The translations under genes were made by a program, and so were the position numbers. From the NCBI RefSeq assembly GCF_965202595.1, contig NZ_OZ241836.1, positions 1,104,357 through 1,168,356 of the forward strand: a stretch of DNA of 64,000 bases, read 5' to 3'. The first letter of the stretch is position 1, and every line of letters starts with the position of its first letter. Positions 10 to 28,364 of the stretch are shown piece by piece. This DNA comes from Candidatus Poriferisocius sp. (lineage in GTDB: Bacteria > Actinomycetota > Acidimicrobiia > Acidimicrobiales > Bin134). The notes under the pieces were generated by a model that was not told the DNA's origin, ran no database searches, and saw only the letters and a program-made list of their open reading frames with translations.

Positions 10-543
10 TTACGAGGGAACTCCCAGCGAGTTCAGCAGCGTTGGCCAGAAATCGTGGGCGATCTGGCGCACGTCTGGCTCGGGGCGCGTGTCAAGTGGG
101 TAGGGCAACACACACAGTCGCAAGCCGGACCGGCCCAGGTTGCGGGCCATGATCCCGGCCAGCGGCACGAACTCCTCGGTAACGACGGCGACCGCCGTCT
201 TGCCCCTGGACGCTATCGCGACTGCGTCGTGGACGGTCCAGGAGGTGCAGCTTCCTCAATTGCCAAGGCCGACGATGGCGATGTCCACATCGGTGGCGAA
301 GTTGTCCAGCTCCACCAGAACCGCGTCCTTGAGCTTGACATCCTGGCGGGATTCTGAGCACCACGGCATCACCTCGGCACCAGCCGCGGTCAGCTTGTGG
401 GTCCACTCCTCGGTGGTCCACAAAAACGAGCGCCAGGTGAGGTCGTAGCGGATGCCCACCCGCTTACCGATCAGCGGACCGGCATCGGGGCCCCGGTCCG
501 GGTCAATAGCCTGCGGGACTGCCGTCGGATCCAGTACCAACAT
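10..543 (-). CDS. UGSC-family selenoprotein; in-frame TGA at 256-258 read as selenocysteine
   Basis: Track ORF 256..543 stops at TGA after ...DIAIVGLGN. The same frame continues GSCTSWTVHDAVAIASRGKTAVAVVTEEFVPLAG... to TAA at 10-12, giving the N-U-G-S-C motif. It is a paralog of 13710..14258, which has TGA at the same motif position. Confidence 0.8.
205..242 (-). other. candidate SECIS-like stem-loop downstream of UGA 256-258
   Basis: On the minus strand, CCTGGAC (242-236) pairs with GTCCAGG (211-205). There is an inner CGAC-GCA-GTCG hairpin. The structure begins about 14 nt after the TGA. Hand-folded only. Confidence 0.3.
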
Positions 544-579
544 GCCAGCAGATTAGCGTCTAGGAGCTGAGATGGGGTT

Positions 580-1389
580 CTACCTTCCGGTGAAGTTGGG
601 GGGTCGGCCCTGGTGGCGGGATGCGGCCCATTCCCGAAAGTCGGCCGAGCGGGATGACAACTCCATGGCGAAGGCCTCGTCGCCCAGATGAGACTCCAGG
701 CTTCTACCGGAACTGCGGCTGATGAGGGTTTTGGTCAGCCCGATGGACACGGTGGCCGAGGCCGCCAACCGGGTGGCCAGCGCCAAAGCCTCGGCATCGA
801 CGTGGTCGGCGGGAACCGCTTGATGGATAAGTCCCCAAGCAGCGGCGTCGGCTCCGGAAATCTCCTCGCCCAGCATCAACATCCGTTTGGTCCGGCTGAT
901 CCCGGCCAAACGGGGCAGGAGCCATGACATCCCACTGTCGGGGGTAATGCCCATGGAGGTGAACGGTGCCCGTAGCCGGGCATCCTCAGCAGCTACCGCG
1001 AAGTCGCAGGCCAGTACCAGGCTGAGGCCCAGACCCACAGCCCATCCCTGTATCGCGCCCACGATGGGTACCTGCACCTCCAGCATCACCGGGATGAGCC
1101 GGTTCACCAGATAGGGCATGCGGCGGGAGATGCTGCCCGGTCGGGGCCGGGGGCCACTTCCGATCCGACCGGCCAGGTCGAAGCCGCTGCAAAAGTTGTC
1201 GCCCTCGGCATTGAGTAGTACTGCCCGAACATCCTCGTCGGAGCCGGCGGCTTCCAGGGTGTCGATAAGTGTGAGAACGATGTCGTCGGTCAGTGCGTTG
1301 CGACGCTGGGGACGGTCCAGGGTGAGGATCAGCAGCGGTGGGGACGAGACCACTCTCAGTCCCTCCGGTGGGTTGGGGTAGGGCTTCAT
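580..1389 (-). CDS. enoyl-CoA hydratase/isomerase (crotonase) family protein
   Basis: The 269-aa C-terminal part of track ORF 580..2025 has crotonase-like segments LTLDRPQRRNAL, NFCSGFDL and GWAVGLGLSL. The ATG at 1387-1389 overlaps the TGA of the upstream mini-ORF (ATGA). Confidence 0.85.
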   Translation of the reverse strand: MKPYPNPPEGLRVVSSPPLLILTLDRPQRRNALTDDIVLTLIDTLEAAGSDEDVRAVLLNAEGDNFCSGFDLAGRIGSGPRPRPGSISRRMPYLVNRLIPVMLEVQVPIVGAIQGWAVGLGLSLVLACDFAVAAEDARLRAPFTSMGITPDSGMSWLLPRLAGISRTKRMLMLGEEISGADAAAWGLIHQAVPADHVDAEALALATRLAASATVSIGLTKTLISRSSGRSLESHLGDEAFAMELSSRSADFREWAASRHQGRPPNFTGR

Positions 1390-1468
1390 GATCGGTGGTG
1401 CTCCGAGCGTAGCAACCCGACCGGTTTCACCGCCGGGGGGTAGGGCTTCATGATCGGTGATGCTCCGG
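1375..1468 (-). repeat. 62-bp junction duplication (about 1.5 copies) creating a 21-aa linker ORF at 1386..1451
   Basis: GGGGTAGGGCTTCATGATCGGTG[G/A]TGCTCCG occurs at 1375-1406 and 1437-1468. Both copies carry the ATCATGA stop/start overlap. The linker ORF reads MKPYPPAVKPVGLLRSEHHRS. Confidence 0.9.
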
Positions 1469-2752
1469 TTCTGCGCCTTCGCCGGTTTCCATGGCCGCGA
1501 ACCGCTCCACCAGAGCTTCCAGCGCTTCCGCCGAAGTCGAGGCTCCGCCCGGGGCGTTGGGAAGCCGGACCGGCCCGTGCTCCCGGCTGGGCAGCAGAAC
1601 GGTGGCATGCCCCGGGGTTGTGGTCTCGCCCCGCTGGTTCTCCCCCCAGATATCCAGATCCACTGCCGGGAGGTCGCCACCGGCCAAGTACTTGCGAGCC
1701 ACCCGACCTCGCATCCAGTGGGTATCGCCCACATAGTTGAATCCTCGGAACTGGCAGTCCAACCGCCACAACCAGGCATCGTCACCCATCCAGTCGGTGC
1801 ACAGGTGAGTAAGCCAGCATTCCCGCATTCGCCCGTAGTCGTACACCGCGGGACTACCCGCTCTCTCGGCCCACTCGGGATCCCAGTGGACCCGCTGCTG
1901 CACATCGGGGACACCGAGGGCATCGGGTCGGAAAAAGCGGGGCACCCGCCGGCGCTGCTGGTACCCCAGGCGCAGGGCTTTGACCCCGTAGAGCCCCATA
2001 CCCATGCCCGCGTGCCAGCAAACAATGTCGGTCACCCGCAGTGGCCCCTTCACCAGAGGAGCAAGCTCGTCCCCCACCTCGGTGTCCTCATACCACCGGG
2101 GTTCCGCGCCCCGGCGGTTGCCGGGTTCGGCGGCGTAGGCCTCGTCAATGCGAGCCAGTTCATCGGTGCCATAGGGTTCGATCAGGCTCTCCCGCTCATG
2201 GCGGGTGGCCTGGGCCTCGGCCCGATCGGTGCGGATCATGAGCCGGTACTGGGCTGACAGCACCGGCCCTCCGCCGGCTGCGAACACCTCGGCGGTCCAT
2301 TCGTGGATCGCTCGATTAGCGAACCGGCTCCGCTTGTCGTGAACTCCGACCAGCGCGTTGCGCCGGGTAACCCGGGTACCGGGTCGCAGGGGTTGCCACC
2401 ACTCCCGGTGGCTGGCCGAGTAGTGGGCCTGCGCTCCCCTGAGTGGATCTCCCCTGAGTAGGGCGGCGGTTTTCGGATCCAGCCGCTCCACCTCGTTCTC
2501 GCCGATCAGCGTATCCCCGCCCACCATCGGCGGCGGGGCGATGGGTCCGCCCCACACGGTCCCCAACCCGTACTCGGGGTCGCACCACAGGGGATTGTCG
2601 TCACCGTAGGCTTCGGCCACCTGCCGGAAAGCATCCTCGTTGGGTACCTGGAAACGGGGTGGTTGGGGATGGGGCGTGGCTGAGCCTATGCGGCTCCGAA
2701 GCGCCGCCACCGCTTCGTCGGTTATGCCACCAGGGTGTCGTCCATCGTTCAC
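1448..2752 (-). CDS. MaoC/FAS1-like (double hotdog) acyl dehydratase family protein
   Basis: From track ORF 1448..2893. The sequence (DDNPLWCDPEYG..., a long two-lobed dehydratase-like protein) matches what I recall for the MaoC N-terminal plus MaoC dehydratase families. Start is uncertain: GTG 2752 or ATG 2836. Confidence 0.6.
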   Translation of the reverse strand: MNDGRHPGGITDEAVAALRSRIGSATPHPQPPRFQVPNEDAFRQVAEAYGDDNPLWCDPEYGLGTVWGGPIAPPPMVGGDTLIGENEVERLDPKTAALLRGDPLRGAQAHYSASHREWWQPLRPGTRVTRRNALVGVHDKRSRFANRAIHEWTAEVFAAGGGPVLSAQYRLMIRTDRAEAQATRHERESLIEPYGTDELARIDEAYAAEPGNRRGAEPRWYEDTEVGDELAPLVKGPLRVTDIVCWHAGMGMGLYGVKALRLGYQQRRRVPRFFRPDALGVPDVQQRVHWDPEWAERAGSPAVYDYGRMRECWLTHLCTDWMGDDAWLWRLDCQFRGFNYVGDTHWMRGRVARKYLAGGDLPAVDLDIWGENQRGETTTPGHATVLLPSREHGPVRLPNAPGGASTSAEALEALVERFAAMETGEGAEPEHHRS

Positions 2753-3768: not shown

Positions 3769-5580
3769 CTACCTACCGGGTCGGCGTTTCTGGACGCGGG
3801 CCCATTCGTCGCGCAGACCTACGGTGCGGTGGAACCGATCGGGGGCCTCGGGGTCGCGGGCGAAATAGCCGAGGCGCTCGAACTGGACCACCTGGCCGGG
3901 GGCGATGTCGGCCATGGCCGGCTCGAAGCGGGCCGTCTCCACGAGGCGGATGGAGTCGGGGGCCAGCGAGTCCATCGGATCGGTGCCGTCGGCACCGGGG
4001 TAAGGGTGGGTGAACAGGTGCTGGTAGAGCAAGGCCTGGCCGCGGTGGGCGTGGGCCGCGGATACCCAGTGGATGGTGGCCCGCACCCTGCGCCCATCGG
4101 GGGCTTGGCCCGATCCGGTGTCGGGGTCGTAAACACAGCGGACCTCGGTCACCCTGCCGTCTATGTCGGTTTCCACCCCGGTGCAGGTTACGAAGTAGCC
4201 CGATCTCAGGCGGACTTCCCGGCCGGGAGCCAGCCGGTAAAATTTGGGGGGCGGATCGAGCATGAAGTCGTCCCGTTCGATGTAGAGGACTCGTGAGAAC
4301 GGGACCTGCCGGGTACCCGCCGAGGGATCCTCGGGGTTGTTGGCGGCCTCCCGCATCTCCGTTTGGCCCTCGGGATAGTTTTCGATGACCAGCCGTAGCG
4401 GGTCGAGCACCGCCATCCGGCGCAGAGCCACCGCGTTCAGCTCCCGGCGGACGAAGGATTCCAGCAGCTCCACCTCCACGGTGCCGTCCACCCGGGCCAC
4501 CCCGATGTGGCGGCAGAACTGCCGGATTGCGTTTGGCGGGTAGCCCCTCCGGCGCAGACCTTGAAGGGTGGGCATGCGGGGATCGTCCCACCCGGATACA
4601 TGGCCTTTTGACACCAGCTCCGAAAGGCGACGCTTGGACAGCACGGTGTGAGTCAGGTTCAGGCGGGCGAACTCTGTTTGCCGGGGGCGATCCCCGGGCA
4701 GGTCGAGATGTTTTAGGAACCAGTCGTACAGCGGGCGGTGGGCATCGAACTCCAGGGTGCAGATCGAGTGGGTCACACCCTCCAGGGCATCGCTCTGGCC
4801 GTGGGCCCAGTCGTAAGTGGGATAGATGCACCATCGGTCGCCGGTGCGGTGATGGGTCTGGTGGCGAATGCGGTACAACACCGGGTCGCGCATGAGCATG
4901 TTCTCATGGGCCATGTCTATTCGGGCCCGCAACACCCGCTCACCGTCGGCGAACTCGCCGGCCCGCATGCGACGGAACAGGTCCAGGTTCTCATCAACCG
5001 TCCGGTTCCGCCAGGGGCTGTGGGTGCCCGGTTCGGTGAAGCTGCCTCGGGTGGCCGAGATGGTCGCCGCGTCCTGGTCGTCCACATAGGCCAGCCCGGC
5101 CCGGATCAGGTCTTCCGCCCAGTGGTAGAGCGGCTCGAAGTAATCGGAGGCGTAAAGGGTGCCCCGATCGGATTGGTAACCCAGCCAAGCCAGGTCGTTC
5201 TCAATGGCGGCGACGAAATCGGATCTCTCGGTCTCGGGGTTGGTGTCGTCCAGGCGGAGGTTGCAAGTGCCGTTGAACTCGCCGGCCAGGTCGAAGTTCA
5301 AACAGATGGACTTGGCGTGGCCGATGTGGAGATAGCCGTTGGGTTCGGGGGGGAACCGGGTCTGCACCCGACCGGCGAAAGTTCCCTCGGCGATATTCCG
5401 GTTGACCAAGGTGCGAATGAAGTCGCTGCGTTGGCTCGACTTGCCATCAACGAAGTCGCTGCGTTGGTTCGACTTGGTATCAATGAAGTCGCTGCGTTGG
5501 CTCGACTTGGCATCAACGAAGTCGCTGCGCTCGCCCGGTTCGGCATCCCCGGTGCTCCCCGCGCGGCTCATGGGCCCCAT
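3769..5580 (-). CDS. glnS: glutamine--tRNA ligase with repeat-bearing N-terminal extension
   Basis: PEPNGYLHIGHAKS (HIGH) and VLSKRRL (KMSKS-like) class I motifs, with GlnRS-like sequence throughout. ATG at 5580 (MGPMSRAG...). The rest of track ORF 3769..6348 overlaps the divergent amidohydrolase gene. Confidence 0.9.
   Translation of the reverse strand: MGPMSRAGSTGDAEPGERSDFVDAKSSQRSDFIDTKSNQRSDFVDGKSSQRSDFIRTLVNRNIAEGTFAGRVQTRFPPEPNGYLHIGHAKSICLNFDLAGEFNGTCNLRLDDTNPETERSDFVAAIENDLAWLGYQSDRGTLYASDYFEPLYHWAEDLIRAGLAYVDDQDAATISATRGSFTEPGTHSPWRNRTVDENLDLFRRMRAGEFADGERVLRARIDMAHENMLMRDPVLYRIRHQTHHRTGDRWCIYPTYDWAHGQSDALEGVTHSICTLEFDAHRPLYDWFLKHLDLPGDRPRQTEFARLNLTHTVLSKRRLSELVSKGHVSGWDDPRMPTLQGLRRRGYPPNAIRQFCRHIGVARVDGTVEVELLESFVRRELNAVALRRMAVLDPLRLVIENYPEGQTEMREAANNPEDPSAGTRQVPFSRVLYIERDDFMLDPPPKFYRLAPGREVRLRSGYFVTCTGVETDIDGRVTEVRCVYDPDTGSGQAPDGRRVRATIHWVSAAHAHRGQALLYQHLFTHPYPGADGTDPMDSLAPDSIRLVETARFEPAMADIAPGQVVQFERLGYFARDPEAPDRFHRTVGLRDEWARVQKRRPGR
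5416..5540 (-). repeat. 33-bp in-frame tandem repeat (about 3.8 copies) in the glnS 5' coding region
   Basis: AATGAAGTCGCTGCGTTGGCTCGACTTGCCATC-type units encode (K)SSQRSDF(V/I)D four times, immediately upstream of the conserved catalytic core. Confidence 0.9.
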
Positions 5581-6795: not shown

Positions 6796-6985
6796 TAGGT
6801 GTGGCCATGAGCGATCAATGGGACATAATTTCCAGCCACTACAGCAACCAAAAGTTGCTGCCTGATAGGTGATGACCATGAACGATCAATGGGACCGGCA
6901 AGCTGGTGTGGCCATGAGCGATCAATGGGACCGGCAAGCTGGTGTGACCATGAGCGATCAATGGGACCGGCAAGCCGATGTGGTG
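6791..6985 (+). repeat. compound junction repeat: a 70/71-bp duplication plus 36-bp x3 in-frame copies of the downstream start region
   Basis: CCTGATAGGTG..CCATGA.CGATCAATGGGAC occurs at 6791 and 6861. ATGAGCGATCAATGGGACCGGCAAGC units have ATGs at 6878, 6914 and 6950. The ATG at 6807 opens a 21-aa ORF that stops at 6870-6872. Confidence 0.85.
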
Positions 6986-8435: not shown

Positions 8436-8615
8436 TCAGTTCAACACCAGGCCCTCGAGAGCACCCTCATATCAGTTCAACACCAGGCCCTCGAGAGCAC
8501 CCTCATATCAGTTCAACACCAGGCCCTCGAGAGCACCCTCATATCAGTTCAACACCAGGCCCTCGAGAGCACCCTCATATCAGCTCAGCACCAGGCCCTC
8601 GAGAGCACCCTCGTC
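8436..8615 (-). repeat. 36-bp x5 tandem copies of the BVMO 3' terminus, each including the stop codon
   Basis: TCAGTTCAACACCAGGCCCTCGAGAGCACCCTCATA occurs four times (8436, 8472, 8508, 8544), followed by the real end TCAGCTCAGCACC... at 8580. Each copy reads ...GALEGLVL(N/S)-stop on the minus strand. Confidence 0.95.
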
Positions 8616-10385: not shown

Positions 10386-10405
10386 GGCTCACTACGATAG
10401 GGTTC

Positions 10406-10864
10406 ATGTCCTTCGAGGCCCGATTTGATCTACGAGGAGTTGACTGGACCCACATGGAGGGAGGTCCGGAGTTCGACTATCCCATCGAATACGATGTGGC
10501 TGTCCTCGGCTCGCAGCCAGATCATGGTTCACTCGACCTGCTGGTGCGGTTCGCCCCCAATTCCCACTGCCACTTCCACCGCCATGTGGCCGCCACCCGC
10601 ACCCTGGTGCTCCAGGGTGAGCATCACGTTTTCGATGTCGAGCCCGGCGGCGGGATCGTCCACAAGGTCAAGCCCGCTGGTACCTATGGCCAGAGCCCCG
10701 GTGGGGAGGTTCACATGGAGCGGGGCGGGCCCGACGGGGCCATCGTACTGTTCGCCCTGCACTCCCCCACCGGCGTGCTGTTCGAGTCGCTCGACAGCGA
10801 CCGCAACATCATGGCCGTTTCCACCATCGAGTCGATGGCCGAGGGGCCTCTCATGGGCGGCTAG
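10406..10864 (+). CDS. small cupin-like hypothetical protein
   Basis: A 152-aa ORF with an HCHFHRH...GEHH His-rich beta-barrel-like core. No confident family assignment. Confidence 0.45.
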   Translation: MSFEARFDLRGVDWTHMEGGPEFDYPIEYDVAVLGSQPDHGSLDLLVRFAPNSHCHFHRHVAATRTLVLQGEHHVFDVEPGGGIVHKVKPAGTYGQSPGGEVHMERGGPDGAIVLFALHSPTGVLFESLDSDRNIMAVSTIESMAEGPLMGG

Positions 10865-10865
10865 C

Positions 10866-10956
10866 CCGAACTTGTTGGATCGCGGACCTCATCGGATTAC
10901 CGAACTTGTTGGATCGCGGACCTCATCGGATTACCGAACTTGTTGGATCGCGGACC
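10866..10956. repeat. 34-bp tandem repeat (about 2.7 copies) starting 2 nt after the cupin stop codon
   Basis: CCGAACTTGTTGGATCGCGGACCTCATCGGATTA occurs at 10866, 10900 and 10934 (partial). It lies between convergent genes. Confidence 0.9.
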
Positions 10957-11004
10957 GGATACGAATCGCGATACCGGTGCTCGCCTGCGCTATCCGGTTC
11001 TTTC

Positions 11005-12422: not shown

Positions 12423-12525
12423 GGCCATGCTCATCCTCCAAAGATTATGCACTGGCCACCGGGGGCGAGCCATCGTGGATGGGAGGATGGGCAGGTTCGT
12501 ATGGTTATGAATGTTATGGGTATGA

Positions 12526-13599
12526 ATGGGTGAGGATGAGCCGGTGATCGCCATGCCTGCTGTTCAAACCATCGAGGAATGGGTGGAGCTGGCTCATACC
12601 GAGGGGCTGACAGACGGGTTGCCGGTGTATCCCCCCACCCGAGCCGCGGTGGATGCCCTGGTGATGGCCTCGGGCCGGGATCCCGGCCTGTTGCTGGGAG
12701 CCATCCCCCCGAGGGGCGGGGCGGCCACTGTAGAAGTATTGGCCGCCAACGCGGCCATGGCCGGATGCCGGCCCGAGCATTTCGAGGTGGTGCTGTCCGC
12801 CGTCGAGGCCATGCTGGAGGATCGTTTCAACCTGCGAGGGGTGGTCACCACTACCCACCCGTGCTGGCCGTTGATCATCGTGTCGGGACCGGTGGTCGAG
12901 CAGTTGCAAATGGCGCATGCCGAGTCGGTGTTCAGCGGTGGTGGAGCTCACGCCGGTGCGGCTATCGGCCGGGCGGTCAAGCTCATCTTGTGGAACGTGG
13001 GGGGAGCCACTCCCGGCGAGCCGGTCAAGGAGGTTTTGGGGCATCCCGGCCGTTATGCCTTCTGTGTAGCCGAGTCACCGGCCGGCCCGTGGCCTCCCTT
13101 GCACCAGGCCCGGGGGATAAAAGCCGGCAGCGGGGTAACGGTGTTCGCTTGCGAATCCCCCACCAGCGTGGCCCTGTGGGGAACGGACGACACCCCGAGC
13201 AATCGCCTGGCCCAGTTGGCCGATGCCATGGCCCTCAAGGGGGGCAACAACACCCACACCATGGGCGAGATCCTGGTGATCTTCACCCCCAACGAGGCCC
13301 GTCACCTGTTTGAGCAAGGTTATGACCGGGAGGCGGTGCAACTGGATCTGTGGCAGAGGGCCCGGCGGCGAATCGGGGATCTGCTGGCCCCGGGACTCCC
13401 TCCCTACAACTGGTGGCCGGCCTGGGTGGATGCCGGCGACCCCGACACGCTGGTTCCGGTGACCGAGCGACCCGAGGACATCCACGTGGTGGTCACCGGG
13501 GCCGAGTCCATACCCTGGATGGCGGTGTGCGCCGGCTGGGGAAACCTGGGAGGCCATGCCGTCAGCCGGGCGCTCGACGAGGGCACCGGGCAGGATTGA
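12526..13599 (+). CDS. conserved hypothetical protein (357 aa) immediately upstream of a UGSC selenoprotein gene
   Basis: A clean 357-aa ORF with high-GC third positions. I recognise no family. The ATG at 12526 is preceded by a 15-bp x2 ATG-rich repeat at 12501-12530. Confidence 0.5.
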   Translation: MGEDEPVIAMPAVQTIEEWVELAHTEGLTDGLPVYPPTRAAVDALVMASGRDPGLLLGAIPPRGGAATVEVLAANAAMAGCRPEHFEVVLSAVEAMLEDRFNLRGVVTTTHPCWPLIIVSGPVVEQLQMAHAESVFSGGGAHAGAAIGRAVKLILWNVGGATPGEPVKEVLGHPGRYAFCVAESPAGPWPPLHQARGIKAGSGVTVFACESPTSVALWGTDDTPSNRLAQLADAMALKGGNNTHTMGEILVIFTPNEARHLFEQGYDREAVQLDLWQRARRRIGDLLAPGLPPYNWWPAWVDAGDPDTLVPVTERPEDIHVVVTGAESIPWMAVCAGWGNLGGHAVSRALDEGTGQD

Positions 13600-13725
13600 A
13601 AGCAGTTGGTTGGGTGATCAACAAGGTCGGGGGGGGGGGGGCAAGTGATCGGGGCCAGAGAAGTGCAGGCGTTCTGGCGTGAATTGAAAGTGTTCGGCAA
13701 GATCGGGGGATGCAAGTGATCGGGG
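13595..13725 (+). repeat. diverged duplication of the stop/start junction between the hypothetical gene and the UGSC gene, containing a G13 tract
   Basis: ATTGAAAG...CAAGTGATCGGGG occurs at about 13595-13654 and about 13683-13725. In the upstream copy, the GGGGGATG of the real start is replaced by a G13 run at 13629-13641. Confidence 0.75.
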
Positions 13726-14258
13726 AGTTGGTGGATCCTCGAGGAGTGGTGATGATCGGCGGGGCCGGGTTGGCCGCCCGGCGGGGCCATACCCGGGGAC
13801 CGCTGATCATCGGGTTCCTGGTCAACGAGTTCAATCCCTCGTCAGGGCCCGACTTCACCCGTTATACCGAGGTGCTGGAGCAAAAGTTCCGGCATCGTCT
13901 GGACGTGACCGCGGTGATCCGCCGGCACAAGCCGCTGCTCAGTCGACCGGCGGGTGATGAGATGCTGGCCTCGTTCCGGGCCTGCGCGGGGGTGGTCAAC
14001 GGTCTGGCCAAATGAGGCTCATGCACGTCGGGCAGTGTGCTCGATGCCGTGAACCTGGAGAAGTTGGGCATCCCCACCGTAACTTTGGTCACCGAGCCGT
14101 TCACCGTGGCTGCTGGCACCGTGGCCCGATCCCTGGGCATGCCCGATGTTCCCCGGGTGGCGGTACCCCATGATTATCTCACCGAGAGCGACGGCACCAT
14201 TGCCAGAAAACTCGAGCCCCTGGTGGATCGAATCCTGGATCAACTGCTGATCCGCTGA
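13710..14258 (+). CDS. UGSC-family selenoprotein; in-frame TGA at 14013-14015 read as selenocysteine
   Basis: Track ORF 13710..14015 ends ...VVNGLAK-TGA. The same frame continues GSCTSGSVLDAVNLEKLGIPTVTLVTEPF..., which is track ORF 14037..14258. This gives K-U-G-S-C, with architecture parallel to 10..543. Confidence 0.8.
14016..14048 (+). other. candidate SECIS-like imperfect hairpin immediately 3' of UGA 14013-14015
   Basis: In GGCTCATGCACGTCGGGCAGTGTGCTCGATGCC, the core GCACGT pairs with GTGTGC (with G-U pairs) around a 6-nt G-rich loop, and the outer GGC pairs with GCC. Hand-folded only. Confidence 0.3.
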
Positions 14259-14277
14259 CCGGATTGCCCGGCGGTGC

Positions 14278-14357: not shown

Positions 14358-14363
14358 GGGCGA

Positions 14364-17853: not shown

Positions 17854-17981
17854 GCACCTGGCTATCCGGTAGTGCGTATATGGCAATGAGCACCTGGGTA
17901 TCCGGTAGTGCGTATATGGCAGTAAGCACCTGGGTATCCGGTAGTGCGTATATGGCAGTAAGCACCTGGCTATCGGGTAGT
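17838..17981 (+). repeat. 36-bp x4 tandem copies of the lipoprotein 3' terminus, filling the whole intergenic gap to the ATPase
   Basis: GCGTATATGGCA(A/G)T(G/A)AGCACCTGG(C/G)TATC(C/G)GGTAGT occurs at 17838, 17874, 17910 and 17946. Each copy keeps RIWQ-stop, as CAA TGA or CAG TAA. Confidence 0.95.
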
Positions 17982-17993
17982 TTCCCATCCTGA
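17850..17993 (+). other. repeat-encoded 47-aa linker ORF, overlapped at both ends with the flanking genes
   Basis: The ATG at 17850-17852 overlaps the lipoprotein TGA at 17851-17853 (ATGA). The ORF runs in frame through all four repeats (STW(L/V)SGSAYMA(M/V)). Its TGA at 17991-17993 overlaps the ATPase ATG at 17993-17995 (TGATG). Confidence 0.6.
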
Positions 17994-20401
17994 TGGCCTC
18001 TGCTACTGCCTTCGATCCGCAAGCAGGACCGGACCCTGTTCTGGGACTCACCAGCGCCCAGGTGGCGGAGCGGGTTGCTGGTGGGCGCACCAACAAGGTG
18101 CCGGACGCCCCGGTGCGCACGCTGCCTCAGATCTTGCGGGCCAACGTGTTCTCCCCCGTGAACGGCATAATGCTGGTGCTGTTCGCGGCCATTCTGGTGG
18201 CTGGTTTCCCCCGTGACGGGCTGTTCGTAGGGGTGGTGATATCCAACGCCATCATCGGAGTGGCCCAGGAGATTCGGGCGAAACGAGAGCTGGACCGCCT
18301 CGCGGTGCTCAGCGCCCCCAAGGCTCGGGTGGTACGCGACGGGGACATCCACGAGGTTGGGGTTAGCGAGGTGGTGGCCGAGGAGGTCCTGGAGTTGACC
18401 CCCGGGGACCAGGTGGTGGTGGACGGGGTCGTTCTTGCTTCCACGGGCTTGGAGGCCGACGAGTCATTGCTCACCGGTGAGGCCGATCCCATCGGCAAGG
18501 ATGTTGGTGATGAGCTGCTGTCGGGCAGCTTTGTGGCCGCCGGCCACGGGCGGTACCGGGCCACCCGCATAGGGGCCGAGTCCTATGCCAGCTCGCTGTC
18601 GGAGGAGGCCAAGCGTTTCTCACTGGTCAACAGCGAGCTGCGCCGGGGCATCGACACCGTGCTGTGCTGGCTCATAGTCATCATCCCCCCGGCCTCGGCA
18701 CTGCTGATCCTGGTACTGCTCGACACCGAGGACCGTTGGCAGAACGCCCTTCAGGGTACGGTGGCTGCCGCCGTGGCCATGGTGCCCGACGGTCTGGTGC
18801 TGCTCACCAGCCTCTCGTTCGTCGCCGGAGTGGTGGCTCTGGCCCGCCGGCGGGCGCTGGCCAAGGAGCTGGCCACCGTGGAGTTGCTGGCCCGCATCGA
18901 CATGCTGTGCCTCGACAAGACCGGCACCATCACCACCGGCCACATCAGCCTCAGCGGGGTGGAAACCCTGCCCGGCGTGGATCCGGCCGTGGTCGCCACC
19001 GCACTCGGAGCCATGGCCCATGCCGATGAGGCTCCCAACGCCACCATGCTGGCGGTTCGCGATGCTTACCCCACCCCCGATGGCGGTGGCTGGGCACCGG
19101 TGGGAACCACGCCTTTTTCCAGTTTCCGCAAGTGGTCGGCCGTTGAGTTCCGTCACAACGGTGCCTTCTACTTCGGTGCTCCCGACGTTATCGCCGGTGA
19201 CCATCCCGAGGTTATGGACCGGGTGGTTGGACACGCCGAAACGGGACGGCGCACACTTCTGCTGGCTCACGATTCCGAGCCACTCACCGGCGATGCCCTG
19301 CCCGAGAACCGGACACCTCTGGCTTTGATCCTGCTGGAGGACACCATCCGTCCCGACGCTCCCGAGATTCTGGATTTCTTCCGCGAGCAGGGGGTGAATC
19401 TCAAGGTGATCTCCGGTGACCACACCGCCACGGTGGCCGCCGTGGCCCGAAGAGCCGGCATTCCCGACTCCCACGCCTGCTTCGATGCCCGGGATCTGCC
19501 CGAGGACATCGACGAGATGGCCGGCGTGCTGGCCGGCAACACGGTTTTCGGTCGGGTCACCCCCCGCCAGAAGCAAGCCATGGTCAGGGCACTCCAGTCG
19601 AAGGGTCACACCGTGGCCATGACCGGTGACGGGGTCAACGATGTGCTGGCTCTGAAGAACGCCGACATGGGTATCTCCATGGGCAGCGGATCGGCTTCCA
19701 CCCGGGCGGTGGCCCAACTGGTGTTGCTCGACAATTCGTTCGCCACCCTGCCCGAGGTGTTGGCCCAGGGACGCAAGGTGATCAACAACGTGGAGCGGGT
19801 GGCCAACCTGTTCGTGACCAAGGCTTCCTATGCCGTGCTGCTCACGGTGCTGGTGGGGATGTTCACGGTGGAGTACCCGTTCCTGCCCCGCCACCTCACC
19901 CTGGTGGGCACGTTCTCCATCGGCGTGCCCGGCCTGTTCTTGGCCCTGGCCCCCAGCACCGAGCTGATCCGCCCCGGCTTCTTGGTCCGGGTGTTGCGGT
20001 TTTCCCTGCCGGCCGGCGGCCTGGCCGCATTCGCGTCCTTCACCGTCTATGAGATCGCCCGCCGCCACGATGAGGTCACCCTGGGTGAAGCCCGCACCGT
20101 GGCAACGTTCACCCTGCTTGGGGTGGGGCTGGTGATCCTGGTGGTGATCAGCCGCCCGCTGCAACCGTGGAAGATCGGGTTGGCCGTGGCCATGGCCGGG
20201 GCATACATGGTGGTGATGGGGTGGCCGTGGATGAGGGAGTATTTCGCGCTGCACCCTCCCCCGCTCTGGATGTGGGGACCGACCATGGCCGCGGTGGCCA
20301 TTGCCGGTGCCGGTGTGGTCACCATTCCCCGGGCCTTGAGGAGATACCAGGATCGGTTGCCGGGGCCCGGAAGAAGTAGTCGGGGTTACCAGGGGCGTTA
20401 A
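17993..20401 (+). CDS. cation-translocating P-type ATPase (HAD-IC superfamily)
   Basis: Contains the DKTGTIT phosphorylation motif, TGDGVNDVLALKNADMGISMG, TGEADP, and multiple TM segments. Confidence 0.9.
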   Translation: MASATAFDPQAGPDPVLGLTSAQVAERVAGGRTNKVPDAPVRTLPQILRANVFSPVNGIMLVLFAAILVAGFPRDGLFVGVVISNAIIGVAQEIRAKRELDRLAVLSAPKARVVRDGDIHEVGVSEVVAEEVLELTPGDQVVVDGVVLASTGLEADESLLTGEADPIGKDVGDELLSGSFVAAGHGRYRATRIGAESYASSLSEEAKRFSLVNSELRRGIDTVLCWLIVIIPPASALLILVLLDTEDRWQNALQGTVAAAVAMVPDGLVLLTSLSFVAGVVALARRRALAKELATVELLARIDMLCLDKTGTITTGHISLSGVETLPGVDPAVVATALGAMAHADEAPNATMLAVRDAYPTPDGGGWAPVGTTPFSSFRKWSAVEFRHNGAFYFGAPDVIAGDHPEVMDRVVGHAETGRRTLLLAHDSEPLTGDALPENRTPLALILLEDTIRPDAPEILDFFREQGVNLKVISGDHTATVAAVARRAGIPDSHACFDARDLPEDIDEMAGVLAGNTVFGRVTPRQKQAMVRALQSKGHTVAMTGDGVNDVLALKNADMGISMGSGSASTRAVAQLVLLDNSFATLPEVLAQGRKVINNVERVANLFVTKASYAVLLTVLVGMFTVEYPFLPRHLTLVGTFSIGVPGLFLALAPSTELIRPGFLVRVLRFSLPAGGLAAFASFTVYEIARRHDEVTLGEARTVATFTLLGVGLVILVVISRPLQPWKIGLAVAMAGAYMVVMGWPWMREYFALHPPPLWMWGPTMAAVAIAGAGVVTIPRALRRYQDRLPGPGRSSRGYQGR

Positions 20402-20471
20402 AATTGTGGCTGCGGACGAAAAGGGGCGGGTGGTTTACCGGAAGAAGTAGTCGGGGTTACCAGGGGCGTTA
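20367..20471 (+). repeat. 71-bp duplication (about 1.5 copies) of the ATPase 3' terminus
   Basis: CCGGAAGAAGTAGTCGGGGTTACCAGGGGCGTTA occurs at 20367-20400 and 20438-20471. The real stop is TAA; the copy has TAG at the same position. Confidence 0.9.
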
Positions 20472-20481
20472 GGGTCGGATC

Positions 20482-21453
20482 ATGCGTATCGGCATTTACC
20501 TGGATCTGCGGAATCCGCCGGAGTGGCGAAGGCCCTGGCCGGAGTTCTACCGGCAATCGCTGGAGCTGGTCGTCCAGGCCGAGGAGTGGGGTGCCGATTC
20601 GGTGTGGCTCAGCGAGCATCACTTCTTTGAGGACGGCTACCTGCCCCAACCGCTCACCTTTGCCGCGGCGGTGGCGGCCCGGACCCAGCGCATCCGGATC
20701 GGCACCGCGGTGCTGCTGGCCCCGCTGCGCTCGGCCCTCCGGATTGCCGAAGAAGCCGTCGTGGTGGATCAGATCAGCTCCGGCCGGCTGGATCTGGGGT
20801 TGGGCGCAGGATACGTGCACGACGAGTTCGCCGCCTACGGGGCCGACCTGTCCAAGCGCTACACCACTACCGACCAGCGGGTACGAGAGGTGAGGGAGCT
20901 ACTTGAGGATGGTGCAGTCACCCCGCCCCCGGTGCAACGCCCGCTTCCCATCTGGCTGGGTTACAACGGTCCCCAGGGGGCCCGCCGGGCCGGAAGGCTG
21001 GGCTGCGGTTTGCTGTCCATCAACCCGGCATCGCTCGAACCCTACTTGGAGGGTCTGGGCGATGCCGGCCACCACTCGACCGCTGCCCGCATGGCCGGAG
21101 TGGTCAACATGGTGGTGGCCGATGACCCCGATGAGGCTTACGAGCGCATCCTTCCCCACCTGGCTTGGCAGCTCAACACCTACCGGGCGGCGGGGGCCTC
21201 GGGAACCGGCGGGACCCCCAGCCCGCTCACGGTGGAGAAGTTGCGGGAGCGACGCAGCACCATGGGGGTTATCTCCCCGCTGGAGGTTCTGACCCCCGAC
21301 GGTGCCATCGAGCACCTACGCCGCTTGTCCGGGGGCATTCCGATGGTGGAGGCCTACTGCTGGGCCACCATCGCAGGCATGCCCGACGAGCTGGCCCACC
21401 GCCACGTCGAATTATTGTGCACGGTTGTGCGAGAAGGGGTGCTCGATCTGTGA
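20482..21453 (+). CDS. LLM-class (luciferase-like) flavin/F420-dependent oxidoreductase
   Basis: MRIGIYLDL..., WLSEHHF, and RIRIGTAVLLAPLR...GRLDLGLGAGY are typical of the LLM family. Confidence 0.8.
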   Translation: MRIGIYLDLRNPPEWRRPWPEFYRQSLELVVQAEEWGADSVWLSEHHFFEDGYLPQPLTFAAAVAARTQRIRIGTAVLLAPLRSALRIAEEAVVVDQISSGRLDLGLGAGYVHDEFAAYGADLSKRYTTTDQRVREVRELLEDGAVTPPPVQRPLPIWLGYNGPQGARRAGRLGCGLLSINPASLEPYLEGLGDAGHHSTAARMAGVVNMVVADDPDEAYERILPHLAWQLNTYRAAGASGTGGTPSPLTVEKLRERRSTMGVISPLEVLTPDGAIEHLRRLSGGIPMVEAYCWATIAGMPDELAHRHVELLCTVVREGVLDL

Positions 21454-21522
21454 AGGCTGCCCTTGGCCGGGGTAGCCGCTAGCTGGGTGAGGCTGCCTTT
21501 GGTTGGGTCAGGCGCTAGCCGA
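21451..21522. repeat. 36-bp x2 diverged duplication of a convergent stop/stop junction
   Basis: TGAAGGCTGCCCTTGGCCGGGGTAGCCGCTAGC versus GTGAGGCTGCCTTTGGTTGGGTCAGGCGCTAGC. The copies carry the LLM TGA and the peroxiredoxin TAG respectively. Confidence 0.7.
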
Positions 21523-21985
21523 GTTTTGCGACATCGTTCAGTATGTCGGCGGCGTGCTGGGCCAGGTCTTGGCTAGCCAGGTCGTAAGCCCTGGCCACTT
21601 TGCCGTCGGGGGCGATGAGGTAGCTGATGCGCCGGGGCAGGCCGTACTCGTAATACTCCTCGCCCTCGACCCGCTCGGCGTGATAGGCCCGCCCCACCGT
21701 TCGGTCGGAGTCGGAGATCAGCTTGAACGGGAAGCCCTCCCGGCCGGCGAATGCCTTCTGCTCGTCCACGGTGTCGAACGAGGCTCCCACTACCACGACG
21801 TTGGCGGCATCGAACTCCGGGGCTCGGTCACGGAACCCCTGTCCCTGGATGGTTCAACCGGGGGTGGATGCCTTCGGGTACCACCATAACGCCACCCACT
21901 TGCCCCGCAGATCCGAAAGCGACAGATCCTGACCGTCCTGGTCCGGCGCGGTGAACTCCGGCGCCATCGTTCCTACTTGTAACAT
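21515..21985 (-). CDS. Bcp-type peroxiredoxin with selenocysteine (TGA at 21854-21856) in place of the peroxidatic Cys
   Basis: My translation is MLQVGTMAPEFTAPDQDGQDLSLSDLRGKWVALWWYPKASTPG-TGA-TIQGQGFRDRAPEFDAANVVVVGASFDTVDEQKAF..., joined in frame to track ORF 21515..21796. The canonical motif is PK..TPGCT. Confidence 0.85.
21819..21839 (-). other. candidate SECIS hairpin 14 nt downstream of the peroxiredoxin UGA
   Basis: On the minus strand, GGGGTTC-CGTGACC-GAGCCCC forms a 7-bp stem (one G-U pair) with a 7-nt loop containing GU. Confidence 0.4.
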
Positions 21986-22071
21986 GGCTATGTATTCTAC
22001 CTTGACAGCCAGCTAAGCGCTTGCTTGTAACATGGCTATGTATTCTACCTTGACAGCCAGCTAAGCGCTTG
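21976..22071 (-). repeat. perfect 48-bp x2 duplication spanning the ALDH stop and the peroxiredoxin start
   Basis: CTTGTAACATGGCTATGTATTCTACCTTGACAGCCAGCTAAGCGCTTG is identical at 21976-22023 and 22024-22071. Each copy holds both the CTA stop and the CAT start. Confidence 0.95.
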
Positions 22072-23535
22072 CATCTCGCTGTAAGCGTGAAGGCCGTAGA
22101 CACCGCGGTCGCGACCGATGCCGCTCATCTTGAAGCCGCCGAAGGGGGCGTGGGTGTGGGGGGCCAGCGAGTTGAGCCCCACGTTGCCCGATTCGATGCG
22201 CCGGCCGATCTCGAAGGCCCGGGCAGTGTCGCCGGCAAACACGTAACTGAACAAGCCGTAGTCGCTGCTGTTGGCCAGCTCCACGGCGTGGTCGTCACCG
22301 TCGTGGGCCAGCACGACCACCACCGGCCCGAATATTTCCTCCCGCACCACTCGCATGCCGGGGGTGCAGTCCACCAGCAGCGTGGGGGCCACGAAGCAAC
22401 CGGGCCGGTCGGGGCGCTCACCACCGGCCAGCACCGTGGCTCCTTCGGCTCGACCGCCGGCGATGTACCCCTCCACCCGGTCGCGGTGAGCTTCGGTGAT
22501 GACCGGGCCCACCACCGTCCCCCGATCCCGGGCATCACCCACCTTCAGCATCCCGGCCACCGCGGTCAGCTTGTCAACCAGCTCGTCGTGGCGCGAGCGG
22601 TGGACGATCACCCGGGTGGGCGCGGTGCAGATCTGGCCGCTGTGGAATCCCCACACGGTAGCGATGGCCCCGATCGCGGCATCCACGTCGCAATCCTCGG
22701 TGAGAACGCAGGCCCCCTTGCCCCCCAGTTCCATGAGCAGCCGCTTCATGGTGGCCGCCCCGGCCTCCATGATCTTGACCCCTACCGCGGACGAACCGGT
22801 GAAGCTCACCATGTCCACGTCACGGGACTCCACCAGAGCGGCCCCGGTGCCGGCTCCCGGCCCGGTCACGATGTTTATCACCCCTGGCGGGAAGCCGGCC
22901 TCCTCGATAATTCCCACCGCTTTGATCATGGCCAGAGGATCCTGGGGCGCGGGCTTGATGACCACGGTGTTGCCCATGGCCAGAGCGGGGGCGACCTTGC
23001 CGGCCACGTTGACCAGCGGGAAGTTGTACGAGGTTATGCAGGCCACCACTCCTACCGGCTGGCGGATCACGTGGGCCCCGGCCAATCCGCCCGGTCCCAG
23101 CGGGTTGGCCTCCACCGGGTAGGGGGCCAGGGTCTCGTCCAGGTTCACCGGGGTTTGGTACTGGCGGAACCGCTCACCGCACGACGGCAACTGCATGCTC
23201 TCGGTCACGTTTACGGTGGCACCGGTCTCCCCCTGCACCAGACCGGCCAGGCTCCCGATCCGTTCATCCAGCAGGTCGGCGGCCCGGCCCAGCAGGGCGC
23301 ACCGGTCGGCCATCGGCATCGCCCGCCAACCCGGCAGGGCTGCTCGGGCCGCCGCGGCCGCGTCGGCCACCTGCGAGGCAGACGCTTCGGGAGCGTGACC
23401 GATCACTCCGGTGGTGTTGGGGTCCACGATCGGGTAGGTGCCCGCATCCGGGGTCACCCACTCACCCCCGATGAGCAGGCGGTACTCCTCACCGATGTCA
23501 ACCGGTGCCGGCTCGGCTGATTCCATGGGTGTCAC
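22045..23535 (-). CDS. NAD(P)+-dependent aldehyde dehydrogenase
   Basis: ELGGKG, catalytic GQICTAPTR and FTGSSAVG motifs, in a 496-aa protein. Confidence 0.9.
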   Translation of the reverse strand: MTPMESAEPAPVDIGEEYRLLIGGEWVTPDAGTYPIVDPNTTGVIGHAPEASASQVADAAAAARAALPGWRAMPMADRCALLGRAADLLDERIGSLAGLVQGETGATVNVTESMQLPSCGERFRQYQTPVNLDETLAPYPVEANPLGPGGLAGAHVIRQPVGVVACITSYNFPLVNVAGKVAPALAMGNTVVIKPAPQDPLAMIKAVGIIEEAGFPPGVINIVTGPGAGTGAALVESRDVDMVSFTGSSAVGVKIMEAGAATMKRLLMELGGKGACVLTEDCDVDAAIGAIATVWGFHSGQICTAPTRVIVHRSRHDELVDKLTAVAGMLKVGDARDRGTVVGPVITEAHRDRVEGYIAGGRAEGATVLAGGERPDRPGCFVAPTLLVDCTPGMRVVREEIFGPVVVVLAHDGDDHAVELANSSDYGLFSYVFAGDTARAFEIGRRIESGNVGLNSLAPHTHAPFGGFKMSGIGRDRGVYGLHAYSEMQALSWLSR

Positions 23536-23569
23536 CCCTTTCCTGCGAACCGCCGATTCACCGAGAACC

Positions 23570-23685
23570 CTTCGGCCCGGGGACTCTTCGGGTTACGCGG
23601 CGATACCAGAAATCCCAGAAGTGCAAATGCCAACACTGGACCTTCGGGCCGGGAAGTCTTATGGCTACGCGGCGATGCCGAACCT
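23570..23685 (-). repeat. about 72-bp diverged duplication of the amidohydrolase 3' terminus
   Basis: CTTCGG.CCGGG.A.TCTT..GG.TACGCGGCGAT.CC occurs twice. The real end reads GIAA-TAG and the copy reads GIAA-TAA. Confidence 0.7.
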
Positions 23686-24918
23686 GTCCAGCTCGTACAG
23701 ATGGATGGCGTTGCCCCGGAGCAGCTTGTAGATCTCCTCGTCATTGAGCCCGGCCTCGGTGACGATCCTGGTTGCCACCTCCTTGGTGTGGGGGAAAGTG
23801 GAGTCGGCGTGGGGGTAGTCCACCTCGAAGGTGATTTGATCCATGCCGATCAGGTCCCGGTTGCGCAGCCCCACCGCATCGTCGAACATGCAGCCCCACA
23901 CGTGGCCGGCGATGTAGGAGGATGGTGGGTTGGGCAGGTTCACCCCGAATTCGCCGTTGTCGTCATTGATCCGCTCCTCCCACAACTTGTCCATGCGCTC
24001 GATCACGTAGGGCATCCATCCCACCTGGCCCTCGCTGTAAGCCACCCGCAGGCGGGGGTAACGCTCGAACACTCCCGACAGGATGTAGTCGCACATCGAT
24101 CCCATGGCGTTGCTGAAGGTGATGGTGGAGCTGACTGCGAACGGCGCGTCCGGCGAAGTGGTGGGCATCTTGGATGATGACCCGATATGCATGTTCACCA
24201 CCGTCCCGGTTTCCTCGCAGGCGGCGAAGAACGGCTCCCAGAACCGGCTCGGATGGTGGATGGAGGGCAGTCCCAAGTGGAATGGGTTTTCCGAGAAAGC
24301 CACCGAGAAGCTGCCCTTGGCGGCGCACCGGCGGATCTCCTCGGCAGCCAGGTGGGCATCCCACAGCGGGATGATGGTCAGGGGGATCAGCCGACCCCTG
24401 CCGTCACCGGCACACCACTCGTCGATCATCCAATCGTTGTAGGCCTTGACGCACAGGAGGGCCAGCTCCTTGTCCTCACGCTCGTGGAATGTCTGCCCGC
24501 AGAACCGGGGTAGCACGTTGGGGAAGCAGATGGATGCATCCACATGGTTGGCGTCCATGTCCGCCAGGCGTTCCTTCTGCTTCCAGCACCCGGGCAGGAT
24601 CTCGTCGAAGGTCACCGGCGTGTTGGTGAGGGGTTCGAACCCGATGGCGGCCGAGAGTTTGGGGAACGGGTACACCAGATCGTCGTAGAGCCACCAGTCG
24701 CCCCACGTTCCGTCGGGGGCTCCCTTCTCGTAGCTGAACACACCACCCTCGAAGTGGAACTTGGCCTTGTCCCGCTCCACTCGGGGGCAACGGTCGTGGT
24801 ACTTGCGGGGAAGGCGCTCGGTCCACAGGTCGGGTGGTTCCACCACATGGTCATCCACGGAGATGATGCGAGGGATGTCGTGGTCGTCCACGGAGATGAT
24901 GCGAGGGATGTCTGCCAT
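23665..24918 (-). CDS. amidohydrolase-2 family metal-dependent hydrolase
   Basis: IISVDDHVVEPPDLW..., ...FEVDYPHADSTFP, in a 417-aa protein. The N-terminus carries a 33-bp in-frame duplication. Confidence 0.8.
   Translation of the reverse strand: MADIPRIISVDDHDIPRIISVDDHVVEPPDLWTERLPRKYHDRCPRVERDKAKFHFEGGVFSYEKGAPDGTWGDWWLYDDLVYPFPKLSAAIGFEPLTNTPVTFDEILPGCWKQKERLADMDANHVDASICFPNVLPRFCGQTFHEREDKELALLCVKAYNDWMIDEWCAGDGRGRLIPLTIIPLWDAHLAAEEIRRCAAKGSFSVAFSENPFHLGLPSIHHPSRFWEPFFAACEETGTVVNMHIGSSSKMPTTSPDAPFAVSSTITFSNAMGSMCDYILSGVFERYPRLRVAYSEGQVGWMPYVIERMDKLWEERINDDNGEFGVNLPNPPSSYIAGHVWGCMFDDAVGLRNRDLIGMDQITFEVDYPHADSTFPHTKEVATRIVTEAGLNDEEIYKLLRGNAIHLYELDRFGIAA
24850..24915 (-). repeat. 33-bp x2 in-frame duplication in the amidohydrolase 5' coding region
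   Basis: It encodes DIPRIISVDDH twice, immediately after the ATG at 24918. Confidence 0.9.
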
Positions 24919-28024: not shown

Positions 28025-28042
28025 GGCACCCGGCTTTTTCAG

Positions 28043-28077
28043 CCCCTGGGGTGTTCGGGCTCTCTCAGCCCCAGGGG
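28043..28077. terminator. GC-rich hairpin between convergent thiolase and SelW-like genes (possible bidirectional terminator)
   Basis: CCCCTGGGG (28043-28051) pairs with CCCCAGGGG (28069-28077) across a 17-nt loop. There is no canonical U-tract after the stem. Confidence 0.3.
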
Positions 28078-28091
28078 TTACGAGCTTGGGG

Positions 28092-28364
28092 CTATGTGCC
28101 GTAGCGGTTCACCCCGGTGGCATACCGGCTGGTGAATAGCTCCAGAATCTCACCGGGTTCGGCGTGCCGGCAGCAGCCGTCCTTGGAGAAAAGCATCTCC
28201 CCATCGACTTCCACATCGAAGATTCCCGATGTCCCCGTCACCAGGGCCAGGTTCTCGATGATGTGCTGGTAGTTACCCAGCAAGTCCTTGGCAGCGCTCA
28301 CGGCGTGCTCCGAATAGTCTCAAGGGACGCAATAGGTGATGGTGATGCGATGCTTTTGAGCCAC
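28092..28364 (-). CDS. SelW/Rdx-family selenoprotein with CxxU motif (TGA at 28320-28322)
   Basis: GTG-AQKHRITITYCVP-TGA-DYSEHAV is joined in frame to track ORF 28092..28301 (...LVTGTSGIFDVEVDGEMLFSK...EPGEILELF). There is an in-frame TAG 12 nt upstream of the GTG at 28364. Confidence 0.75.

Follow-up and report, generated by a model that had tools for sequence, protein, structure and literature searches.

The stretch of DNA analysed here, 64,000 nucleotides (nt) long and referred to as the window, carries with high probability four ordinary bacterial selenoprotein genes of known families in which UGA is read as selenocysteine (Sec). As part of the same reading, the window would come from the chromosome of an uncultured marine member of the Acidimicrobiia whose near relative is Candidatus Poriferisocius, a sponge- and coral-associated genus. 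Two of the genes encode UGSC-family proteins (UGSC-1 and UGSC-2), the third a BCP/PrxQ-type peroxiredoxin, and the fourth a SelW-like protein. All four families have been known as selenoprotein families since 2005–2008; the four genes are new members of them in the host lineage, for which the searchable literature describes no selenoproteins. The in-frame TGAs were located by a six-frame search and were then read through to whole proteins, which yielded the following features:

10..543, minus strand: UGSC-1 gene, 177 amino acids, Sec at residue 96, stop TAA
256..258, minus strand: UGSC-1 Sec codon TGA, context LGN-U-GSCTSW
13710..14258, plus strand: UGSC-2 gene, 182 amino acids, Sec at residue 102, own stop TGA
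14013..14015, plus strand: UGSC-2 Sec codon TGA, context LAK-U-GSCTSG
21515..21985, minus strand: BCP/PrxQ-type peroxiredoxin gene, 156 amino acids, Sec at the position of the peroxidatic Cys
21854..21856, minus strand: peroxiredoxin Sec codon TGA, context YPKASTPG-U-TIQG, motif T-P-G-U-T
28092..28364, minus strand: SelW-like gene (Rdx, SelT/SelW/SelH family), 90 amino acids, GTG start, CxxU motif
28320..28322, minus strand: SelW-like Sec codon TGA, context ITYCVP-U-DY, motif C-V-P-U

An earlier, sequence-only reading of this DNA had singled out the span 10..28364, whose ends coincide exactly with the stop of UGSC-1 and the start of the SelW-like gene. It held that four in-frame TGAs fall on redox Cys/Sec positions, and all four lie where it had placed them, as profile matches and alignments to solved structures attest. 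Family searches likewise agree with its view that the four products are thiol-oxidoreductase-like and include no formate dehydrogenase.

The genetic code of the host is standard, since 24 of the 42 confidently called genes in the window stop at TGA, the commonest stop codon, and UGSC-2 is among them; the sequence-only reading had argued in the same way from neighbouring genes that end at TGA. A reassignment of TGA, for example to Trp or Gly, would turn the four codons into ordinary sense codons, and the presence of four in-frame TGAs is all that speaks for it. Not only do the 24 TGA-terminated genes stand against this explanation, but reading through their stops gives non-coding extensions, and UGSC-2 holds one decoded and one terminating TGA. 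Reassignment is refuted by this stop-codon usage, and we grant it practically no probability. A read-through screen, of a kind that the earlier reading had called for, was run over the whole window and all TGA-terminated genes; it gave no fifth Sec candidate. Both 10-kb flanks, the 21-kb loci of relatives and the 36 kb of the window beyond the four genes likewise yielded no further candidates. Two read-through pairs were rejected as neighbouring genes that share a frame: homoserine sulfhydrylase followed by a lipoprotein at 34634, and iscS followed by mnmA at 54733.

The comparative sequence evidence argues decisively for Sec decoding of UGSC-2. Its product matches the Pfam UGSC profile PF24696 (E-value 2.8e-30) over residues 7-179, on both sides of the TGA, and the U(C)-G-S-C motif falls into one shared column across 73 family sequences. 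The peptide around Sec reads GLAK-U-GSCTSGSVLDAVNLEK. On PF24696 the two UGSC copies of the window score 105.2 and 106.1 bits (gathering score 25), and on the NCBIfam equivalog NF041046 they stay below the cut-off of 125 bits, with 68.3 and 85.3 bits. UGSC-2 orthologues were drawn from a scan of a genome collection with the protein encoded next to UGSC-2 (partner-2, see below) as the query, from which 80 loci were used. All 15 orthologues among those loci, at 45-88% identity, possess both the TGA and the conserved C-terminal half. When UGSC-2 was compared with seven close relatives, substitutions at the first, second and third codon positions numbered 9, 9 and 26 before the TGA and 11, 10 and 29 after it. 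This dominance of the third position persists downstream, and the part of the gene that follows the TGA is therefore under coding selection.

A second line of evidence comes from the RNA, where the UGSC family shares a hairpin that we regard as its selenocysteine insertion sequence (SECIS). In UGSC-2, the element is positioned as follows:

14026..14046, plus strand: UGSC-2 SECIS hairpin, stem +14..+22 with +26..+34, apical loop G23-U24-G25

Across 73 distinct UGSC sequences, 87.7% of the cells in an 8-base-pair (bp) helix formed by +15..22 with +26..33 are paired, compared with 74% in column shuffles (none of 500 reached the observed value) and with 24-45% when the partner strand is slid. At pair 21-27, 37 sequences have CG and 35 have GC; at pair 19-29, UA occurs in 46, GU in 15 and CG in 3. 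The loop G23-U24, present in 64 of the 73 sequences, recurs at the same spacing in the SelB-binding loop of Escherichia coli fdhF (PMC8659212). Third-position entropy amounts to 0.5-1.2 bits within the hairpin and to 1.6-1.9 bits in flanking positions, and in 50 of the 73 sequences the loop is supplied by AGT, which makes up only 5% of the Ser codons of the window. Because of this low entropy at synonymous sites and the use of a rare loop codon, selection must act on the RNA as well as on the protein. Among the 79 UGSC genes covered here, essentially all have TGA at the U position; Blastococcus sp. CT_GayMR19 has TAG there (L066:9725-9727) and keeps the hairpin. This is consistent with the published recoding of UAG as Sec, since Geodermatophilaceae have tRNASec(CUA) and UGSC genes with TAG-encoded Sec (PMC5330540), and it suggests that the Sec codon of the family follows the anticodon of its tRNA-Sec. 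The 2008 Global Ocean Sampling (GOS) survey counted 255 Sec and 21 Cys forms of the UGSC family (PMC2398784, Zhang & Gladyshev). The motif itself varies among six loci of our collection (L032, L050, L054, L077, L085, L040), being UGGC in several, UGAC in three and UGSS in one.

The peroxiredoxin gene matches AhpC/TSA (PF00578) with an E-value of 5.7e-34 and 117 bits (cut-off 26). Its Sec aligns with the TPGC-motif Cys of the solved BCP structures 5enu and 5iph, which we take to be the peroxidatic Cys, and with a Cys of the 65%-identical full-length homologue P0167 (WWYPKASTPGCTIEG); in the region of the conserved Arg, RRISYLI aligns with ERSTFLI of the solved BCP proteins. The protein scores below the cut-offs of the E. 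coli Bcp equivalog (PRK09437, 105.5 versus 140 bits) and of the PrxU equivalog (NF040737, 50.4 versus 270 bits). It contains no Cys residue at all, hence no resolving Cys, and is for this reason predicted to depend on an external thiol or reductase for its recycling. The SelW-like protein matches Rdx (PF10262) with an E-value of 3.9e-14 (53.1 versus 22.6 bits) and TIGR02174 with 40.8 versus 34.2 bits, and falls below the Campylobacter-type equivalog NF041051 (63 versus 88 bits). Its CVPU motif aligns with CTQC of the solved bacterial Rdx proteins 3dex and 2fa8, so that U takes the place of the second Cys of CxxC. Downstream of both Sec codons lie candidate SECIS hairpins:

21819..21839, minus strand: peroxiredoxin candidate SECIS, 7-bp stem (+18..+24 with +32..+38), loop CGUGACC (+25..31) with G26-U27
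28291..28308, minus strand: SelW-like candidate SECIS, 6 bp with one bulge (+15..+20 with +26..+32), loop CGUGA (+21..25) with G22-U23

Judged by their sequences, both elements are plausible. Rare codons build them, namely CGT (7% of Arg codons), CGA (9% of Arg codons) and GCT (10% of Ala codons), with CGT and CGA used in the peroxiredoxin. A hairpin with a GU loop at +20..30 occurs at three of the four Sec sites; over the TGA triplets of the whole window its frequency is 14%, a background that leaves this coincidence as modest support only. At the start of the peroxiredoxin gene, a perfect 48-bp repeat present twice (21976-22072) duplicates the start codon together with a -10-like box (TAGAAT) that precedes it by 7 nt; a mini-ORF (open reading frame) of six codons results from the upstream copy, and the gene may be leaderless.

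Several observations weigh against the reading of the four genes as Sec-decoded. When folded as single sequences, all four hairpins had energies not significantly better than those of shuffled sequences (z -1.2 to +0.7), which is why we rely on the comparative and codon-usage evidence, and none of the four TGAs was matched in Rfam, whether gathering or permissive thresholds were applied. The hairpins of the peroxiredoxin, SelW-like and UGSC-1 genes each rest on a single sequence. A protein search with concatenated fragments for orthologues of these three genes found four distant peroxiredoxins only; since all matches in this and a second fragment search were of at least 100 amino acids, the protein collection apparently lacks the shorter fragments into which Sec codons split such genes. 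A scan of JGI metagenomes for the same orthologues yielded identities of at most 45%, and the loci of relatives either stop about 100-400 nt before the peroxiredoxin TGA or do not contain it. As to the decoding machinery, ARAGORN detected no tRNA in the window, and thus no tRNA-Sec. Pfam searches revealed no homologue of selA, selB or selD among the window genes, and neither these nor a tRNA-Sec were found in the two 10-kb flanks or, overall, in the 81 of 99.8 kb covered of the contig that carries the window. A phmmer search of all fetched loci with E. coli SelA, SelB and SelD found matches in two loci alone, L052 (selA) and L042 (selB), neither of them from a close relative. From the evidence for Sec decoding given above, we infer that selA, selB, selC and selD are present in the host genome. 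Finally, the underlying assemblies are low-coverage long-read contigs, with names that end in _2x or _3x and with 15 indels between two of them over 8.7 kb; because of this, frameshift artefacts may exist elsewhere in the window.

This last point bears on the question whether the in-frame TGAs arose through errors of sequencing or assembly, or mark pseudogenes, an explanation that the low coverage, the indel differences between samples and the public gene calls, which render all four genes split or short, would fit. The contig that carries the window DNA is ctg136603_3x of the European Nucleotide Archive (ENA) metagenome ERZ26693861 (99,788 bp, of which 81 kb, record positions 10936-91905, were readable). 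Over 8.7 kb (window positions 15717-24385), a contig from a second sample (L002) differs from it by no substitution and by the 15 indels, and the TGA of the peroxiredoxin gene is the same in both. TGA-truncated products of UGSC-1 (95 amino acids) and of the SelW-like gene (69 amino acids) are each recorded on two contigs. Moreover, all four TGAs lie exactly on the catalytic Cys/Sec column, and that of UGSC-2 recurs in 15 species with codon-like substitution downstream of it. Errors or pseudogenes are in this way largely refuted and, in our estimate, very improbable as the source of the four codons.

The chromosomal assignment rests on 83-86% protein identity to the nearest named relatives, Candidatus Poriferisocius sp. 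and metagenome-assembled genomes labelled 'Acidimicrobiia bacterium' (Actinomycetota; Acidimicrobiia; Acidimicrobiales; Ca. Hopanoidivoransaceae), and on actinobacterial housekeeping synteny in the rest of the window (ilvC-ilvB-ilvD, gatB-gatA, PknB with PASTA domains, ligA, mnmA-iscS and an Rv2466c-like protein). Public gene calls break up all four Sec genes (87+73, 37+93, 69 and 95 amino acids), and UGSC-2 orthologues in the NCBI genomes of Ca. Poriferisocius appear as N-terminal stubs of about 101 amino acids labelled 'hypothetical proteins'. As all four genes are mis-called in public records, the selenoproteome of this lineage is invisible in databases. The sequence-only reading had expected many more mis-annotated selenoproteins; its diagnosis of mis-annotation applies to each of the four genes, while the window and its flanks gave no fifth candidate.

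The remaining points against Sec decoding concern UGSC-1, the divergent copy, which matches PF24696 with an E-value of 5.4e-30 over residues 3-173, again on both sides of the TGA. Its hairpin in the register of the family is deviant:

225..245, minus strand: UGSC-1 hairpin in the family register (+14..+34), loop CCG, two broken pairs

UGSC-1 lacks the G15, the G18 and the G23-U24 loop of the family. It keeps the amino acids GSCTSWTVHD, with ACC, TCC and ACC in place of the family codons ACG, TCG and AGT; the replacements are preferred codons, which fits a lost constraint on the RNA. One could suppose on these grounds that only three of the genes are Sec-decoded and that UGSC-1 has recently been inactivated or is poorly decoded, its SECIS having decayed: all four RNA hallmarks of the family element are gone while the amino acids remain, the changes run toward the preferred codons of the genome, and the best hairpin with a GU loop has 5 bp only. 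The 81 codons after the TGA are nevertheless open and match the UGSC profile to its end, and the partner gene is intact and directly abuts UGSC-1. In addition, a longer alternative hairpin of 10 bp, with an apical helix, can form from +15 to +56, reaching approximately position 203, and the CCG loop also occurs in two other family members (L024, L032). We judge inactivation or poor decoding to be unlikely, and infer that UGSC-1 is still decoded, although this is less certain than for UGSC-2.

Four Sec genes within 28 kb had appeared to the sequence-only reading as an unusually dense selenoproteome. This description can hold only locally; it does not extend to the next 36 kb or to the flanks, where no such genes were found, and two of the four genes are paralogues. 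Each of the four genes is a transcription unit of its own; both strands are used, and 6-13 kb occupied by unrelated genes separate one unit from the next. The surrounding genes are catabolic (enoyl-CoA hydratases, amidohydrolases, monooxygenases, a dioxygenase and a thiolase). Co-oriented and contiguous genes within a single transcription unit, the mark of a selenoprotein operon or island, were thus not found. The GC content is even across the region, and seven relatives share, in synteny, the gene order that extends from the metallo-beta-lactamase gene to the luciferase-like monooxygenase gene. Hence, the region is not an operon, and it does not have the look of an imported island.

In a simulation that placed selenoprotein genes at random on a 3.04-Mb genome, the probability of at least four within 28 kb was 0.014 for 20 genes, 0.06 for 30, 0.18 for 40 and 0.59 for 60, and it becomes much higher if the paralogous UGSC modules are counted once. 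Four genes in 28 kb consequently call for a 3-Mb genome with about 30-60 selenoprotein genes, or else for a non-random placement. One may ask, then, if the clustering is functional, reflecting either a selenoprotein island or a very large selenoproteome of tens of genes. The low probabilities (below 0.02 for 20 genes or fewer, 0.06 for 30, rising to 0.59 for 60) would fit such a view, as would the fact that UGSC modules elsewhere also lie among genes for short-chain dehydrogenases/reductases (SDRs), luciferase-like proteins, enoyl-CoA hydratases, amidohydrolases and dioxygenases. Opposed to it are the division into single units, which lie on both strands and are interrupted by unrelated genes, the uniform GC content and the lack of further candidates in the other 36 kb, the two 10-kb flanks and the 21-kb loci of relatives. 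The effective number of clustered genes is also lower than four, because two of them are paralogues, and the window was picked for looking unusual. We regard this view as less likely than not.

Each UGSC gene of the window is accompanied by a gene for a protein of about 350 amino acids, which we call its partner:

12544..13599, plus strand: partner-2, 351 amino acids, upstream of UGSC-2, alternative ATG at 12526
1..9, minus strand: first three codons of partner-1, with ATG directly after the UGSC-1 TAA; 371 amino acids, continuing beyond the window

Partner-1 (L004:11381-12496) and partner-2 are paralogous, with 35% identity and an E-value of 3e-36. Pfam and NCBIfam searches returned no family for either ORF, and none of the at least 689 homologues carries a Pfam domain. 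The partner scan, carried out on contigs of one genome per species, found more than 545 relatives, and the 80 loci mentioned above were those kept for neighbourhood counts. A UGSC gene on the same strand adjoins the partner gene, in either order, in 76 of these 80 loci. In about 20 loci (L044 and L046 among the fusions), the two lie in one reading frame that is broken only by the Sec codon. The module is found in Acidimicrobiia, Dehalococcoidia, Rokubacteria/Methylomirabilota, Binataceae and Acidobacteriota, and furthermore in Alpha-, Beta-, Gamma- and Deltaproteobacteria, Bacillus piscicola and Blastococcus. Recurrent neighbours are SDRs, luciferase-like monooxygenases, enoyl-CoA hydratases, amidohydrolase_2 proteins and PhyH/TauD dioxygenases, and genes of the same kinds surround the module here. 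In three unrelated genomes it is adjoined by selB (L042:~10100-12659), selA (L052, minus strand, ~12458-15905) or tRNA-Sec (L019:5749-5841). Some genomes hold two to four copies of the module within 20 kb (L021, L025, L026, L032, L050, L064).

AlphaFold gave a confident model of partner-2, with a predicted local distance difference test score (pLDDT) of 89.5 and a predicted template modelling score (pTM) of 0.90. A Foldseek search of this model against the PDB gave nothing significant; the highest template modelling (TM) score was 0.27, reached with class I fumarate hydratase and with cyanuric acid hydrolase. The partner family has invariant His, Cys and Glu residues and Gly-rich motifs, which from their sequence look enzymatic. 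A 'UGSC/Unknown_1' fusion is mentioned in the GOS paper (PMC2398784); Unknown_1 would probably be the partner family. Collectively, these findings lead us to the tentative suggestion that UGSC and its partner could form a widespread, obligately Sec-dependent enzyme, either of two components or fused, whose fold has no counterpart among solved structures. If this were true, co-expression of the pair would offer a handle on the first function for the UGSC family, and Sec use in catabolism, beyond antioxidant defence, would be suggested for aerobic marine symbionts. In abundance, the UGSC family ranks near the top of the environmental selenoprotein families, and it has been functionally orphan since it was first described; the near-universal linkage to the partner across phyla turns it into a testable two-gene system.

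The data lend themselves to a simple model for the four genes, in which the biochemical roles of the products are deduced from their families. A bacterial SECIS hairpin that starts approximately 11-15 nt after each of the four UGAs would recruit SelB with Sec-tRNASec, and all other UGAs of the region would end translation. The peroxiredoxin is predicted to reduce peroxides via a selenenic acid and to rely on an outside thiol or reductase for its regeneration. The SelW-like protein, a predicted CxxU thiol-selenol oxidoreductase, would cycle via a Cys-Sec selenenylsulfide, and the UxxC motif of the UGSC proteins is expected to cycle via a selenenylsulfide alike, acting on or together with the partner protein. 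Aerobic bacteria seldom retain selenoproteins, and it is usually formate dehydrogenase that sustains the Sec trait (review PMC13188914). Here, an apparently aerobic, oxygenase-rich actinobacterial relative of sponge symbionts possesses at least three, and probably four, selenoproteins other than formate dehydrogenase. SelW-like proteins, UGSC proteins and peroxiredoxins are the families that dominate ocean metagenomes.

Apart from the Sec genes, the window contains numerous near-perfect tandem duplications of 33-50 bp in two to five copies, at gene starts and in intergenic regions:

5419-5529, 6868-6982, 8436-8612, 10866-10956, 12319-12422, 17837-17981 and 21976-22072: tandem duplications
24848-24912, 42856-42929, 45294-45415, 47364-47435, 47921-48050 and 55900-56015: further tandem duplications

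They lead to repeated N-terminal peptides in GlnRS, an FAD enzyme, GatB and others. Two of the duplications are reproduced in a second sample; of two close relatives, L111 has three and L008 has none. GlnRS (3769-5400, minus strand) and GatA/GatB (41441-44400, minus strand) are both encoded in the same genome. The public contig calls only the C-terminal 268 amino acids of GlnRS, with an ORF on the opposite strand called over the catalytic domain; GlnRS of L111 has 569 amino acids. Two RCC1-repeat (beta-propeller) proteins are encoded at 58001-60082 and 62447-63946, both on the minus strand, by 111-bp tandem units with 14 and 7 repeats. Their genes lie in a stretch of lower GC content (0.56-0.59) and strong skew, on both sides of an AbiEi/AbiEii toxin-antitoxin pair (60670-62366). 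A PIN/PhdYeFM toxin-antitoxin pair (52814-53466, minus strand) is situated between ligA and mnmA.

Compared with known selenoprotein operons such as grdAB, prdBC, frhA-frhD-hdrA, SAO and Tso (review PMC13188914), the window likewise has several selenoprotein genes close together, but these form four units on both strands, with no co-transcription and no single pathway. The resemblance to the SECIS of E. coli fdhF lies in a hairpin about 11 nt after the UGA with an apical G23 and U24, a spacing that the UGSC family element shares; the elements described here differ in that they have no bulged U17 and in that the loop is 3 nt long in the UGSC family and 5-7 nt long in the SelW-like and peroxiredoxin candidates. 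Like the Sec-containing peroxiredoxins known from the 'Prx, TxxU' class of the GOS survey and from PrxU, the protein of the window has Sec at the peroxidatic Cys of PxxxTxxC in an AhpC/TSA fold; unlike those of the PrxU type, it is BCP/PrxQ-like and has neither a resolving Cys nor any other Cys. The SelW-like protein agrees with the Rdx family (PF10262/TIGR02174) in the CxxU that follows the first strand, in its length of about 90 amino acids and in its alignment to 3dex and 2fa8, and it departs from the family in an extra CC pair at residues 64-65. As for the UGSC family as described, the UxxC motif (U-G-S-C) sits at the same profile position and the Sec form is dominant; here, UGSC and its partner are distinct proteins, their genes are ordered differently in the two copies, and the SECIS of UGSC-1 is non-canonical.

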